The notes beneath the pieces were generated by a model. That model worked only from the letters and a program-made list of their open reading frames with translations, had not been told where the DNA came from and did no database searches. Below, piece after piece: positions 6,185 to 45,971 of a stretch of 64,000 nucleotides of DNA. Made by a program: the position numbers and the translations under genes. Origin of the DNA: a virus (Duplodnaviria; Caudoviricetes); IMG/VR virus record IMGVR_UViG_3300024268_000035, positions 1 to 64,000 of that record. The stretch is one strand, 5' to 3'. Within the stretch, counting starts at the first letter, position 1; each line of letters starts with the position of its first letter.

Positions 6185-7295
6185 TTAGTTGTTATCGTCA
6201 AGCAAGTGTTTCCATCTAAATTTCTTGTCACCGGCTATTATTTTGCCATCATCTTCAGCTTGAAATCGTTTATCATAATCGTGTACGGTATGACCATCAG
6301 ATTTGAATGTGGTAGGACTGTCAAGATCCCACTTCAAGAGTATCTGCCAGAGTTCCGGATAATTCTTGCGGAGCAGTCGAAGCTGATCTACGCCTTGATT
6401 ATGACAAAACCAACATCCGCCTCTTGTTGCGGTTGTGTAAATGGGTGAAAGAAGGTCGTTTTCTTCGCACCACTGTCTGCAAAATGCTTCATCCCATCCG
6501 ATATCAACAAGTGGAAGAATTTTTCCGGGGATACTATGTCGTTTGATACGTTCAGGTTCGTCGGCTGCAATGCCAAGATACTGTACAATATTTATTTTTG
6601 CCCCTTGTACAATGGGGCTATTGGAAAACTCGCTGTTTGAGATGTGTACACCAATTCCCTCTCCCGACTGAGATTGGAAACCCGTAGACATCTTGCTTTG
6701 AGGTCGCTGTTGCACCAATTTCCCCTGATGATTGGGAATCCGAGGATCGAATTGGAGTGCTGGTCGTTTGAGTCCCGAATTGCACCACGGGACTCCTTGA
6801 ACTGGGAATCCATTCGGAGCGTTCTCGCTGAATCGCCCCCCCCCGCAATGGCTTTGCTCTTTCGTCTCTTGGGAATATGATAGAATATCTTTTCGTAAGT
6901 CAGCTTCTCGTAATAATTCTGACATTGCCCAGAGCTTGAGCTTTTTGCACCATGCTCCTTTGGTGAGAGGGAAGCCTTTGAGAGTTCCAATGAATCGTCC
7001 TCGTTCAAGTGGTTTATAGAAGAGTGATTCGTAGGATATCTTTGACTGCCCCCCCCCTCATGGCGCAAATATGTTCCACTTGAATTCCATAGCGTTCAAG
7101 TATGATCTTATCTGCTTTCTCCTTAAACTCTACCATGGGCGGCAAGTCTGCTGAAATTGTATCGGTTGCCCACACCTCAGCATGAACAATTCTGTCGAGA
7201 GGGTATCCAAGAAGTCGGATCGCTTCAAGACAGGCGAGACTATCCTTACCATACGAGAGTGAAAGAATATATTCGGTGTTGGGTTGTCTTTCCAT
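6185..7295 (-). CDS. PAPS-reductase/DndC-like protein, frame-broken at G9 tracts, with alternative internal cassettes
   Basis: N-terminal SLSYGKDS PP-loop; C-terminal YLGIAADE..R, PL, RGGCWFC; G9 tracts at 7049-7057 and 6836-6844. Confidence 0.8.
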
Positions 7296-9998: not shown

Positions 9999-10443
9999 TT
10001 ATTTCTCCTTGTCTGGGCGAAAGATTACTACCATACTTGGGAACGGAGCAGAATTCTTTCCATCTCCGAACTTTAATCTTCCACGAATAAATCTAATTTC
10101 CACATTTGGTTTTTGATAGATATAGTCATGAAAATAACTTGTGTCTGTTCGTGCCGGGATCAGCATCACAACAGTTGTATTGGGTTTCTTGGATTCGTCC
10201 GAACACTTTTTCACCCAATCTTTTATCGCTTTACCGTATGGTGGATTACAGAATACGGTCTGCCCCCCCCCAGCACTGTGCAAGTCCATTATCATGTTCC
10301 GTGTAATATGTATCACACTTATGATTCTGGTCATCAGCGCAAGGATCAAGAGTGAAGTGAAATTCGTTATCCAGTGCATCAAAGAAATTCTGGGGTGTTG
10401 CCCAGTTCATTGATTTTGAGGAAAACATTATATCTAAGCTCAT
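9999..10443 (-). CDS. Phage DNA N6-adenine methyltransferase (Dam-like), frameshifted at a G9 tract
   Basis: WATPQ..F..LD.EF.FTLDPCA in one frame; VFCNPPY, MLIPARTDT, GRLKF, APFPS in the next; G8 at 10263-10271 would fuse them. Confidence 0.88.
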
Positions 10444-10649
10444 TTTTGCTCCTTATATGATTCGCGCCATGCGGCGCAATATGGTTCGATATGTCGTGGA
10501 AATTCTAATACTCGCTCACTGTCACGATAACCACACGTCACTTTTACAGTTTTTTTATCTTCTGCAATATGTACTTTATGCAAGCAATTATAACAAGACT
10601 GAGATTTGCTGATACCACACATTCTGCGGTATTTACTCTTATGAGCCAT
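10440..10649 (-). CDS. Small Cys-rich protein preceded by a G9 RBS
   Basis: CYNC...YCAAW; G9 at 10659-10667 lies in the SD position. Confidence 0.5.
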   Translation of the reverse strand: MAHKSKYRRMCGISKSQSCYNCLHKVHIAEDKKTVKVTCGYRDSERVLEFPRHIEPYCAAWRESYKEQK

Positions 10650-10668
10650 TTTAGAAAGCCCCCCCCCT

Positions 10669-26858: not shown

Positions 26859-27554
26859 TCAGATTTCTTCTGATTTGTCAAGGGGTTTGGATGAAATTTT
26901 TGAAATTTCTGTAACTCGTAATGGATCTTTATAATCTCGTGCGGCAAGTGTCGGCGTGATGCCAGATGTGTAGCATCGCGGCGCACCTTCTCTACCCATT
27001 TGCTTCACATCAAGGATTACAGGGGGGGGCAGCATATACCAACCGGTCTTAGCTCCACCACCGCCAGCTTCAGCTTTCAAAGCACGGGAGACGGTACTGC
27101 CATCATAAATACGATTGGCATCTCCATTATAACCGTTAATATACCCAACTTGCGTCAGCTCCAGATCCTTAATAGCGTCATTACTTTCCGGACGGGAATC
27201 TGGATCCAGTCTGGTTAAGGCTTTTTCAAAAGCTCCAATTCCGCTGAAGAAAGAACCGATCTCCATATCATCAAACAGGTAGGGCATAGCATCATATAGA
27301 TTTTCCATGATATGTACAAGGACATCAACAACGATACTGTTACCGGCTTGCTTATAAAGCTGCGTATTGGAAATACGTTCGATTCTTTCTTCTGATGAAA
27401 ATTCACGTTTTCCTTTGTGTTTAGGGTGTTCTGTCAAAAATGTCATACTCTCTTCGATTGAATAGTATTTGGCGTTTTCAAAATCAATATCATCAAACCC
27501 CATGAGCCGCCAACATTCTTTAGGGGTGAGTTTTCTTACTCGTACTTTTTCCAT
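26859..27554 (-). CDS. C5-cytosine methyltransferase subunit: motifs IX-X, then motif I, then two TRD-like modules
   Basis: RKLTPKECWRLMGF, QLYKQAGNSI, FFSGIGAFE, SRALKAEAGGGG, TPTLAARDYK; C8 tract at 27022-27029. Confidence 0.8.
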   Translation of the reverse strand: MEKVRVRKLTPKECWRLMGFDDIDFENAKYYSIEESMTFLTEHPKHKGKREFSSEERIERISNTQLYKQAGNSIVVDVLVHIMENLYDAMPYLFDDMEIGSFFSGIGAFEKALTRLDPDSRPESNDAIKDLELTQVGYINGYNGDANRIYDGSTVSRALKAEAGGGGAKTGWYMLPPPVILDVKQMGREGAPRCYTSGITPTLAARDYKDPLRVTEISKISSKPLDKSEEI

Positions 27555-27567
27555 AATCCTTACCCTC

Positions 27568-27768
27568 TTATGCTTTATGATCTTCTTTTGATAATTCCAA
27601 CACGCCTGTCATTTGCTGATTACCGAAACCTTTATAATCTCGTGCCAGTAATGTCAGTGCAATATCGCTATATCCATCAAGATGGTTGCCCTGATTGCTC
27701 AGACGAACACCTTTCTTTACAGATGAGCAAGTCCCATGTGTGTCGTCCATCAACGGAACCTCTGCCAC
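27568..27768 (-). CDS. TRD-like module reachable by tract slippage
   Basis: IALTLLARDYKGFGNQ; joins the upstream ORF if the C8 at 27801-27808 becomes C9. Confidence 0.6.
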   Translation of the reverse strand: MAEVPLMDDTHGTCSSVKKGVRLSNQGNHLDGYSDIALTLLARDYKGFGNQQMTGVLELSKEDHKA

Positions 27769-27782
27769 CCGTTCTGATGGTA

Positions 27783-28470
27783 TTACTGATGTTCCGTTGT
27801 GGGGGGGGCGATCATTTCAGCTACTTTTTCATCGCTGAGATAATAATGCTCTTCAACATTGTCTTCCAACATATCACTCAGGGACGCTTTCAGAGGGATA
27901 GGATCCGGGAATTTGAACCTTCCATTATCCAGATCCTTACGGATTATGATACAGTATACGCGCTCTCTGTTTTGTGGAATTCCGTAGTGCTTGGCATTCA
28001 ACACCTGCCAATACACATTATAACCGTATTCTTCCAGTTCAGCGACAAATTTATCGAAGGTTTCCTTAAAACGGCTGCCTACGATATTTTTGACGTTTTC
28101 GTAAATGGCGAATCTGGGTTTCTTTTCACGGAGAAACCGCAGCCACTCAACCAAGAGGGAAGAACGGGTTTTATCAATTTCTGCTGATCCGCATTTCGGA
28201 CAATACGAGCGTGTGGTATAGTGGGTTTCGAGAGGGTTATATGTGTGGCTGCAAGTTTTACATCTCCACGCTGCCCCCCCCCTGTTTACCTGCTATTGAA
28301 AAGTCCTGACATGGACTTCCGCCGAACATGACGTTAAAATCAGGAACTGTCTTTTCATCTGCTTTTGTAATATCACCGATGTTAAGAGACGGATCAACGC
28401 CATGTACTGCACAATAGCTTTCTGCGGCGTACTTATCGAACTCGCAGAACAAGGCAGTTTTGTAATTCAT
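27783..28470 (-). CDS. C5-cytosine methyltransferase catalytic subunit (motifs II-VIII), frameshifted at a G9 tract
   Basis: EFD, GDI, GGSPCQDFS, then ENVK, LNA.HYGIPQNRERVY; G8 at 28274-28282 restores the frame. Confidence 0.85.
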
Positions 28471-28476
28471 TTTATT

Positions 28477-29412
28477 TCATTCTCCTTTTGTTTCAAAAAC
28501 AACATCCTTGGCATGAATATCTGCCAGATGCAGTTTCAGGATGTCAGTATACAATTCTTCGCCGACAAGTTTACGAAACTTAGAAACGGCTTTATCTGAT
28601 TCTGTGCGCTCCAACTCATACGGACGCATATGCCACTGAATCACTGCAGCGATATACACTCTGTCAAGTTCCGGATTTGCATAGAATAAGCTATCGTAAG
28701 CAGAAACGTGCTGGTGGTCATAATAATGAGCGACCTCTGTGGTTTCGCCCTTGGAGTTTACAAAAGATTTTGTAAATGGCTTCCCAATGTCGTGAAGAAC
28801 CGCTGCTTCCTGAAGAGTATCAGACTCATTATTGAGTAAATTGCGAGCTGCAAGACAATGATAACCTACTGTATGGATGTGATGTGGATTGTCATGACTG
28901 ATATATTTCAGACCAGAAATTCCGTCGAACAATTCGTTTGCATCTCTGGTTTTGAACCCTTCCGGATAAATCAGATCGACGTAATCCCACCCTTCGTATG
29001 TATTGGGAATCCATATGTTTCGGTACATTCGTTCCAGAACATCATAAGGAACTACACGCTTACGGTGCTTACTACGTTCTACGCACATATCAAACGGAGT
29101 TGCCATGAAAACACATACTTTTACGCATTCAATTTTGCGAAGACGCTGCAAGGTGTCCATCCGGCGTTTATAATTGATATTTGTTGCATCATAGACAACA
29201 TTTTTTCCGTTTATCAGATCGGAAATGATCCGTTCATGAAGTGTGTCAAACACCAGTGTATTGTTGCTCTGGTTTTCCATGTCGCCGAGAAGTTCAGCAC
29301 GAATATTATCACTGGAATGAATAACAGCATCGTAGGCTTCTTGGAGTTTTTCTGCCTGAAAAGACTTTCCGCTGTATGGTAAGCCTACAAGCATGAAAAA
29401 TATTGGTTTCAT
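28477..29412 (-). CDS. Polynucleotide kinase (P-loop) fused to an HD domain
   Basis: GLPYSGKS, DATN...RR, HDNPHH, LHDIGKP, HLAD. Confidence 0.85.
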   Translation of the reverse strand: MKPIFFMLVGLPYSGKSFQAEKLQEAYDAVIHSSDNIRAELLGDMENQSNNTLVFDTLHERIISDLINGKNVVYDATNINYKRRMDTLQRLRKIECVKVCVFMATPFDMCVERSKHRKRVVPYDVLERMYRNIWIPNTYEGWDYVDLIYPEGFKTRDANELFDGISGLKYISHDNPHHIHTVGYHCLAARNLLNNESDTLQEAAVLHDIGKPFTKSFVNSKGETTEVAHYYDHQHVSAYDSLFYANPELDRVYIAAVIQWHMRPYELERTESDKAVSKFRKLVGEELYTDILKLHLADIHAKDVVFETKGE

Positions 29413-30700: not shown

Positions 30701-32065
30701 TTACACAACCTCCTGAGCTTCTTCCAAATCAGGGCTGACAGCAGTATCTTTAACGATACCTTCCAGAACCTTGAATGAGAAGTTTTTGTGCTTATACGCT
30801 GTGAACTTAGGACGATTTACAATTCTGACTACAACACCTTCGCGTACATGATCCTTACCTACCGGATCTGCGCCGTCGTAATACTGTTCTGCAATGTTCT
30901 TCACACATTCTCCGACAGAACATTCTTTCGCTGTGCAGGTATCCGCATATGGACAATCCTCACCGCCGATATACCCCTTCCAGAATACGGGTACGGTTTT
31001 TACGCCCATCTGTTCGCAGCGATAGCGCATGAAATCAGGAGTGTATTCAACAACGTCGCCATCTTCGTTCGTCATTGTCATGCGATAAACATAGATATCG
31101 GACTGTGGATGTGTAGGCGCATAACAGTCCTCTGTGAAACCTGCGGGTTCACATCCATAACTGAATACTGTGGTTTGCCCATACTGCTTGATAAAGTCCT
31201 TGTTGTTTACCTTCTTATTATCACAGGAGGACATAATAGGAGTACCGTCCTGTGTGAACCCTACGACTTCATAATAGACAGTCTCGCCCTTATGAAGTTT
31301 TCCTTCAAAGAACTTGCTGTGTTGTTCACGGAATTCGTTACTTCCATAAAAACCGCCGTCGTAATTGTCCAGAACAACACGACGGGTTCCTGTTACATAA
31401 CCCCAGTTATATATCGGTGTACCGTGACGTTTTAAGAGCTTGTCCATGAGAGTTCTCTTGTACCCAGAGAGTGTGGGGAGATAACCTGTTCTCTGAGATG
31501 TTCCGTGCATTTTGAGAGTGATTTCAACCTGATCTCCGTTATGGAATGCGGAAAGATTGTAGGAAAGCTGTTCTGTATCAGCGTGTTCCATAAAGAGTGG
31601 AGCGACTGGATCTTTACGCTTACGAGTGCGATTACCAGACGGATACCCCCCCCTACTATCGCTACGCGGAATATACTTTTCACAGATTGTAATTCCGTTC
31701 AGAACCGTGATTGTGTCTCCTTCGCGGAGCGTAGAAATATCGGTGAAATCTTCCAATGATGACAGCGGCATAAACAAGCCGTCACTCTTTTCGCCACGAA
31801 GCGTCAGAGCTTTGATATTACGCTTTTCGGGATCCAAATATCCTCCGGCTGGCTTACCATTTTCATCCTTACGGCGGAGCAGGTCATGTTTCTGTGCAAA
31901 TTCAAGACCGAGTTTACCATCCACCGGGAAATACACACCAAGTTCGTCAGGCTTTGTGTTAAGCCCAACGATTACGGTGTTACCAAAGCATTCGCCGCAC
32001 AACAGTCTGTCAGCGTTGGAATGTTTTCTTACATTTTTAATTCTTGTGATAAAAGCTGAATACAA
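30701..32065 (-). CDS. ATP-dependent RNA ligase (DRB0094/Rnl-like) with N-terminal OB domain
   Basis: HSNADRL, LRGEKS.G, motif I TLKMHGTS, YYE, EGVV, KHK; in-frame G8 tract at 31646-31653. Confidence 0.85.
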   Translation of the reverse strand: MYSAFITRIKNVRKHSNADRLLCGECFGNTVIVGLNTKPDELGVYFPVDGKLGLEFAQKHDLLRRKDENGKPAGGYLDPEKRNIKALTLRGEKSDGLFMPLSSLEDFTDISTLREGDTITVLNGITICEKYIPRSDSRGGYPSGNRTRKRKDPVAPLFMEHADTEQLSYNLSAFHNGDQVEITLKMHGTSQRTGYLPTLSGYKRTLMDKLLKRHGTPIYNWGYVTGTRRVVLDNYDGGFYGSNEFREQHSKFFEGKLHKGETVYYEVVGFTQDGTPIMSSCDNKKVNNKDFIKQYGQTTVFSYGCEPAGFTEDCYAPTHPQSDIYVYRMTMTNEDGDVVEYTPDFMRYRCEQMGVKTVPVFWKGYIGGEDCPYADTCTAKECSVGECVKNIAEQYYDGADPVGKDHVREGVVVRIVNRPKFTAYKHKNFSFKVLEGIVKDTAVSPDLEEAQEVV

Positions 32066-45518: not shown

Positions 45519-45971
45519 GATTGTTTACTCCTTGTTCAGAGATTATGATGTTACTTCTTTGAGTTTTCCTATTCGGAAAAAGTACGGCAAGGATGTTGAC
45601 CCTACCCCCCCATTATCAGGCGGACTCGGTAGCGGCTTTCCGCACATTGGGCAGTATTTGAACTGAATATGATTACCAGCAGTATCAGAGAAAACATTGG
45701 TTCCAAGGCGAATAAACGCTTTTTTAGGAGCATTTACTGACACAGACGATTCTACCCAAAAGCCTCTCTGCCATTGGCAATATCCGCATCCAATCAAATC
45801 GCATCACCTCCCATTCATAGAATTAACATAGCAAGTTTTCTGCATTTGTTATCCGTTCGGGAGTTAAACCCGCTCTCCGTTAAGGCGTTCCACCGGGAAC
45901 TGTGCGGACAAATAGGGTTGATTAGTTAATTCCATAGGTGTACTTAAAAGGCTTGCGCCTTTGTAAGTATG

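Follow-up and report, generated by a model that had tools for sequence, protein, structure and literature searches.

A split, circularly permuted C5-methyltransferase of a gut phage, with G/C tracts that probably act as heritable switches

Background

Three long runs of G or C lie inside a phage gene for a putative C5-cytosine DNA methyltransferase. The question that they raise is whether such runs are switches, by which one-base changes in DNA would heritably determine whether the enzyme is made and which recognition modules it carries. The DNA analysed here (the window) is a stretch of 64,000 nucleotides and represents the first 64 kb of a 101.5-kb IMG/VR record (IMGVR_UViG_3300024268_000035), which is linear and estimated to be 76% complete. 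DNA identical or nearly identical to the window was found in animal faeces and gut metagenomes, bovine ones included, from 14 studies. No close cultured relative was found among the GenBank phages, where the best DNA match was 53 bp long and protein searches returned distant canonical enzymes only.

Results and discussion

Composition of the methyltransferase locus

The locus lies on the minus strand and starts with an ATG at 28470, with an in-frame stop two codons upstream; the neighbouring gene ends at 28477 (Table 1). Pfam family PF00145 matches three pieces of the locus, with E values from 3e-33 to 2e-8. The C5 motifs I (FxGxG), IV, VI, VIII (QxRxR), IX and X were all located, and the best PDB and fold match is M.HhaI. 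Judged by these matches, the core is a real C5-cytosine DNA methyltransferase. It is distributed over two open reading frames, alpha and beta, and alpha has no motif I, there being no FxGxG ahead of motif II. Each tract encodes Gly-Gly or Pro-Pro at a module boundary. No restriction endonuclease gene adjoins the methyltransferase, the neighbours being a kinase-HD protein and an RNA ligase.

Table 1. Coordinates of the methyltransferase locus, its neighbours and a second putative methyltransferase gene in the window
Feature	Position	Strand	Remarks
RNA ligase with OB domain	30701-32065	minus	RNA-repair-like pair with the kinase-HD protein, flanking the methyltransferase; in-frame G8 tract at 31646-31653
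Kinase (AAA_33) and HD protein	28477-29412	minus	Other member of the RNA-repair-like pair
Alpha, first part	28261-28470	minus	ATG 28470; PF00145 profile positions 22-82, E 3e-15
Motif II	28449-28426	minus	Alpha, first part
Motif IV (PCQ)	28320-28297	minus	Alpha, first part
Tract 1, G9 (coding strand)	28274-28282	minus	Catalytic loop, directly after motif IV
Alpha, second part	27786-28273	minus, +1 frame	PF00145 profile positions 82-212, E 3e-33
CxxC...CxxC insert	about 28262-28191	minus	Zinc-ribbon families of Pfam match below their cut-offs
Motif VI (ENV)	28106-28086	minus	Alpha, second part
Motif VIII (QNRER)	27977-27957	minus	Alpha, second part
Tract 2, C8 (coding strand)	27801-27808	minus	Three-state selector at the end of alpha
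Module a, recognition-like	27680-27800 (core 27790-27725)	minus	Followed by stop 27677-27679
Open spacer and module b (ARDYKG type)	27571-27799 (module b core 27666-27601)	minus	Spacer overlaps module a in another frame; stop 27568-27570
Beta (231 aa)	26859-27554	minus	Intact as sequenced; own ATG 27554; PF00145 profile positions 272-294
Motif IX	27536-27495	minus	Beta
Motif X	27356-27321	minus	Beta
Motif I (FFSGIG)	27251-27216	minus	Beta, after motif X
Module e, M.HhaI-like	27116-27036	minus	Beta, after motif I
Tract 3, C8 (coding strand)	27022-27029	minus	Gate for the C-terminal module g of beta
Module g	26978-26922	minus	Beta, beyond tract 3
Dam-like N6-adenine methyltransferase (PF05869)	10002-10452	minus	G9 (coding strand) at 10263-10271 splits the gene at profile position 62

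Reading frames selected by the tracts

The products of the different frames were obtained by rebuilding the gene in silico with other tract lengths. With tract 1 at G9, the product is 70 amino acids long and ends just past PCQ (stop 28258-28260); G8 or G11 reads on into the part with the zinc-ribbon insert, ENV and QNRER (ON), and G7, G9 and G10 are OFF. Behind tract 2, C8 leads to a stop five codons on (27783-27785), C7 or C10 to module a and then a stop, and C9 to the open spacer followed by module b. Tract 3 keeps module g on at C8 or C11; at other lengths translation ends within one to three codons, after one codon at C7 and after three at C9. As in contingency loci, a homopolymer inside the coding sequence sets the frame. 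The positions of the three tracts and every frame consequence listed in a preliminary description of the gene were confirmed, and the three-switch logic proposed there (ON/OFF, three-way choice of module, module on or off) is what the frames give. Because the window carries G9/C8/C8, alpha is truncated at 70 amino acids and the enzyme is OFF, with beta intact; no active enzyme is expected from the window as sequenced.

A split and circularly permuted enzyme

The gene had been described as one reading frame with three hinges, and this part of the description has to be given up. The stop at 27568-27570 closes a first polypeptide and a second open reading frame opens at the ATG at 27554, giving an enzyme that is split into two polypeptides and circularly permuted. 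The same stop-and-restart junction follows module b in each relative examined (L002, L014, L022 and L033). Motifs II to VIII are on alpha and motifs IX, X and I, in that order, on beta, in place of the canonical single-chain order from I to X.

Intact single-chain relatives without tracts are abundant. One of them (L043:3770-5311) is a chain of 514 amino acids in the order motifs II to VIII, four modules, IX, X and I. A search of solved structures aligned M.HhaI residues 39-92, 91-212 and 270-318 in order with this chain, and residues 12-30, which contain motif I, aligned last, at 481-499 of the chain. Among the 150 best representatives from a library of 1.8 billion proteins, the permuted order occurs in at least 18 distinct clusters at 50% identity and the canonical order in 49. 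A structure prediction for one permuted member (P0148), based on an alignment of 60 sequences, reached a pLDDT of 88 and a pTM of 0.87, with the C-terminal strand and helix predicted confidently and a match to M.HhaI with probability 1.0; AlphaFold2 applied to the 514-amino-acid relative with a 13-sequence alignment gave an unusable model (pLDDT 33).

A survey published in 2018 reported that all natural permuted C5 enzymes then found have their break in the variable region, with motifs IX-X before I-VIII, and that engineered permutants with a new N-terminus between motifs I and II (cp35 of M.MpeI and cp33 of M.SssI) are active (PMC5944983). The single-chain relatives are broken between motifs I and II, not in the variable region as the M.BssHII class is; the clade is therefore a natural type of permutation absent from that survey, and the enzyme a natural case of one formerly made only in the laboratory. 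The locus resembles M.AquI and the M.BssHII class, in which the C5 fold withstands splitting within the variable region as well as circular permutation; it differs from the M.BssHII class in the place of the break, to which the window adds a variable-region split. Two neighbouring genes annotated as methyltransferases in phages of the Bacillus cereus group (among them Deep Blue, BCP01 and PK16; hits H6-H16) are spanned by a single alignment of the IX-X-I part of the window, and an origin of the permutation from a tandem gene pair would fit this alignment. Two relatives of the permuted methyltransferase from the protein library carry putative inteins inside or beside the catalytic PCQ: in P0122 the C and the Q are separated by some 330 additional residues, and P0142 also bears an HNH/AP2-like tail after motif I.

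As a result of the permutation, the recognition-like module gated by tract 3 comes after motif I. The preliminary description had taken module e as a fixed module and module g as its switchable successor. The gating by tract 3 stands, but both modules follow motif I and so lie outside the canonical variable region, which runs from motif VIII to motif IX. In M.HhaI, strand 2 is normally reached from the end of the helix that follows motif I, on the face of the fold that points away from the cleft, and we know of no recognition domain that works after motif I, so that tract 3 may not affect specificity. These recognition-like modules are placed where current structural understanding gives no explanation for them. 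P0140, a permuted C5 protein of 383 amino acids in which only about 58 residues separate motifs VIII and IX, has its single recognition-like module behind motif I, a hint that modules can function in this place.

Tracts and modules in relatives

A search of viral contigs with the middle part of alpha as query returned 48 loci. Tract 1 is present at the same codon in 43 of these and in the window (G7 in five, G8 in 23 and G9 in 16), and tract 2 in 42 and the window (C7 in two, C8 in 18, C9 in 19 and C10 in four). Over the related viral contigs and six Oscillospiraceae genomes, tract lengths range from 6 to 11. Relatives have two to five further tracts at later module boundaries, up to seven tracts per locus. 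The equivalent of tract 3 in L002 and L003 chooses between module g and further modules, and the window copy has lost downstream modules that relatives keep. Four more distant loci (L041-L044) are without tracts 1 and 2 and have ordinary codons at those sites; L043 and L044 contain no long G/C run, and L041 and L042 have G runs elsewhere. Tract 1 is ON in 28 of 48 tract-bearing loci, and tract 2 reads module b in 24 of the 48, a stop in 20 and module a in four. Module b is in frame in 17 of the 28 loci with tract 1 ON and in seven of the 20 with tract 1 OFF, a weak trend among loci that are not independent.

The three-frame layout behind tract 2 is kept in all 43 loci compared. One frame meets a stop within two to five codons (42 of 43 loci), the second encodes module a in 31-40 codons and then stops, and the third is open across the module a region and continues into module b. 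Diversity in the module a region is 0.20, 0.09 and 0.41 at the first, second and third codon positions of the module a frame, amino acid identity there being 81% in this frame and 54% in the overlapping module b frame; the latter is free of stops across the region in all 16 distinct sequences. In the core of module b the diversities are 0.15, 0.05 and 0.51, and amino acid identity is 85%. For the modules after motif I, the corresponding own-frame values are 0.17, 0.11 and 0.56 (d), 0.24, 0.20 and 0.59 (f) and 0.34, 0.28 and 0.59 (e); module g has the same signature in its own frame, from few sequences. In each of modules a to g, variation is thus concentrated at the third codon positions of the module's own frame, and modules a, d, e, f and g retain 60-88% amino acid identity between loci that differ at about one quarter of their bases (nucleotide identity of 0.76 in the a/b region). 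By these codon-position patterns, every module is under purifying selection in its own frame. Decay as a pseudogene is contradicted by the same signatures. Lack of conservation of the alternative-frame peptides had been named beforehand as one of the observations that would speak against a switch; in the comparison of homologs they are conserved in 43 loci, with the signature of purifying selection in their own frames, so that this objection falls away.

Tract-length variation among near-identical genomes

Sixteen pairs of loci are at least 98.5% identical and differ by 766 substitutions in 131,635 aligned nucleotides. The small indels in these pairs number 55, of which 49 fall in 103 comparisons of G/C tracts and six elsewhere. 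Runs of six or more A or T show no indel in 79 comparisons, although these runs are mostly only six long and not length-matched to the G/C tracts. L002 and L003, which come from different samples, differ at two tracts but show no substitution over 7,080 nucleotides, and L015 and L018 have one substitution and four tract differences. Length polymorphism among near-identical genomes is far above background, as is characteristic of contingency loci. The heritable switch envisaged in the preliminary description fits these differences.

Contigs of four public runs, all of them consensus contigs, were compared with 20 kb of the window. Four indels were found, three of them in G/C tracts: the tract at 10659 in all three assemblies of the source samples, the same tract in run X7, and one additional base at tract 3 in X7, whose strain differs from the window at about 1-2% of bases. 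At all three methyltransferase tracts the three source-sample assemblies have the lengths of the window. A contig of X7 ends exactly at tract 2, which is only a hint of heterogeneity within that sample.

The whole 101.5-kb genome contains eight G/C runs of at least eight bases, against 0.50 expected from first-order Markov simulations (maximum of three in 60 simulations), and a single G/C run of exactly six bases against 8.3 expected. Since runs of exactly six are depleted and those of eight or more in excess, the distribution is bimodal: short-to-medium G/C runs are avoided and long ones retained. The three methyltransferase tracts are not due to chance.

Bacterial copies of the locus

Clostridiales bacterium CCNA10 carries the locus with the same tracts in its complete chromosome, and so do two isolates, Dysosmobacter segnis BX15 and Hominicoprocola fusiformis CLA-AA-H269. 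Further copies are in genome assemblies of Oscillospiraceae and Clostridia, a set that includes metagenome-assembled and possibly isolate genomes. The hosts are probably Oscillospiraceae, and the presence of the locus in bacterial genomes suggests that the phage family is probably temperate on them. Tract 1 is G8 (ON) in all six bacterial copies (L050-L055), and module b is read in five of the six. The ON state is found in 22 of 44 viral contigs versus these six of six, for which the one-sided probability is about 0.024, although the data are few and related.

Proposed mechanism and alternatives

We propose, with a probability of about 0.7, that the locus encodes an orphan phage C5 enzyme of two polypeptides, in which three hypermutable tracts heritably switch the enzyme ON or OFF and its modules in or out. 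Alpha would contribute motifs II, IV, the zinc-ribbon-like insert, VI and VIII and an optional C-terminal recognition module; beta would contribute motifs IX and X, the relocated motif I and C-terminal recognition-like modules. The two would assemble into one enzyme by analogy with the split M.AquI and as the single-chain relative implies. Slipped-strand mispairing in replication would shift tract lengths one base at a time, heritably. Tract 1 would bring the catalytic half in or out of frame and so turn the whole enzyme ON or OFF, tract 2 would leave alpha without a further module or add module a or module b, which are read from two overlapping frames, and tract 3 would add module g to the end of beta or remove it. 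By such switching the phage population would become a mixture of genotypes methylating different sets of sites, or none, and the mixture could hedge against varied host restriction systems, methylation-dependent ones included. We infer that the modules set specificity, and likewise the rate of switching and its benefit. The finding of module a in frame in only four of 48 assemblies counts against the proposal, as do the unchanged tract lengths in the three source-sample assemblies, the placement of modules e and g behind motif I and the OFF state of the window copy.

A related idea, which we regard as tentative and rather less probable than otherwise, is that the recognition modules are exchangeable specificity parts that may act outside the VIII-IX region (behind motif I at the C-terminus, or on small separate open reading frames in relatives), each with its own tract, as a C5 counterpart of the separable HsdS. 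One phage genotype family would then reach dozens of methylomes by one-base slips.

The most serious alternative, although an unlikely one, is that slippage of RNA polymerase, or frameshifting by ribosomes, at the G/C runs lets every genome express a mixture of frames, so that the tracts would serve programmed recoding and not heritable phase variation. Runs of 8-10 identical bases can cause slippage, a selected product in several frames behind one tract recalls viral genes with polymerase stuttering, and about half of the assemblies are OFF or stopped in their DNA while all modules are under selection. The frequent differences in DNA length between near-identical genomes, however, indicate that the DNA itself switches, and the two mechanisms are compatible. 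Somewhat less probable still is the view that tract 1 alone matters, as an ON/OFF switch, the out-of-frame modules and those after motif I being disused remnants of shuffling. It would account for the rarity of module a in frame, for the loss from the window copy of downstream modules kept in relatives, and for modules after motif I that have no known way of acting as recognition domains. Remnants would hardly be expected to show the variation biased to third positions and the amino acid identity described above for modules a, d, e, f and g, nor passage frames kept free of stops, and in P0140 the sole recognition-like module follows motif I. That the tracts reflect homopolymer errors of sequencing or assembly in a gene with one fixed in-frame state is very improbable, even though homopolymers of 8-10 bases are error-prone and the IMG/VR and Logan assemblies of the same samples disagree at the 10659 tract. 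Modules a and b occupy separate frames, and in 42 of 43 loci the remaining frame meets a stop within two to five codons, so that no single set of lengths reads all selected modules and pure error fails as an explanation. In addition, A/T runs in the same pairs are without indels, isolate and complete genomes contain the tracts, the lengths that the window has at the three methyltransferase tracts recur in three independent assemblies, and the bimodal run-length distribution needs selection.

Comparison with known systems

The Bacillus phage multispecific C5 enzymes (SPR, phi3T, rho11s and H2) are single chains in canonical order that lack switches and have every module in frame, placed between VIII and IX. 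The locus shares with them an orphan state, one core with several short modules marked by a T-L/I dipeptide, and a presumed protection against multiple restriction systems, and the phage H2 gene was among the protein matches. Unlike those enzymes, that of the window is split, permuted and tract-gated, with some modules after motif I, and sequence identity over motifs IX-X is only about 37%. The likeness to tandem recognition domains of Bacillus phages drawn in the preliminary description holds for the T-L/I modules and only partly for their arrangement: several recognition-like modules of this kind are present, but in the window alpha ends in either a or b, or in neither, and modules e and g come after motif I.

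Switching of a specificity part by a polyG tract is known from the hsdS1 gene of the NgoAV Type I system of N. gonorrhoeae (PMC9577141). There, as proposed here, a length change of a coding homopolymer causes a frameshift that turns off or alters a specificity part, and isolates differ in length. NgoAV is, however, a cellular Type I system, whereas the present locus belongs to an orphan C5 enzyme of a phage, with at least three tracts per locus and two modules in overlapping frames behind one tract. PolyG tracts also act in receptor-binding genes of Campylobacter phages, and contingency loci are found in T2/T4 (10.1101/2025.10.21.683753). In those phages too, homopolymer slippage within a gene yields heritable phenotypic mixtures that serve as a bet hedge; the outcome is simple ON/OFF of receptor binding or of glucosylation (agt), in contrast to the predicted switching of methylation specificity by several tracts in combination. 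Our literature searches turned up no account of a phage C5 enzyme whose recognition modules are gated by tracts.

On the favoured reading, the locus would unite the phase-variable methyltransferases of bacteria, known as switches of defence and gene regulation, with the multispecific anti-restriction methyltransferases of phages. The phage appears to randomise both the sites that it methylates and whether it methylates at all, and not methylating would help against methylation-dependent restriction. The coding is economical, with alternative modules in overlapping frames behind one slippery run. Since the locus is widespread in gut Oscillospiraceae phages, it may shape the host range of gut phages, and its presence in cultured isolates makes the proposal testable.

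Other G/C tracts in the phage genome

Together with the Dam-like gene and a PAPS-reductase-like gene (6185-7295), the C5 enzyme brings to three the number of DNA-modification genes with tracts in the window phage. The Dam-like gene is out of frame as sequenced. At 10659-10667, a run of nine separates the stop of the upstream gene (10669) from a small Cys-rich open reading frame, possibly within the ribosome-binding region of the latter; it is eight bases long in the Logan assemblies of the three source-sample runs, the sole difference from the window over about 10 kb. A C7 run (plus strand) at 45605-45611 is located inside another small Cys-rich open reading frame, at 45543-45797 on the minus strand.
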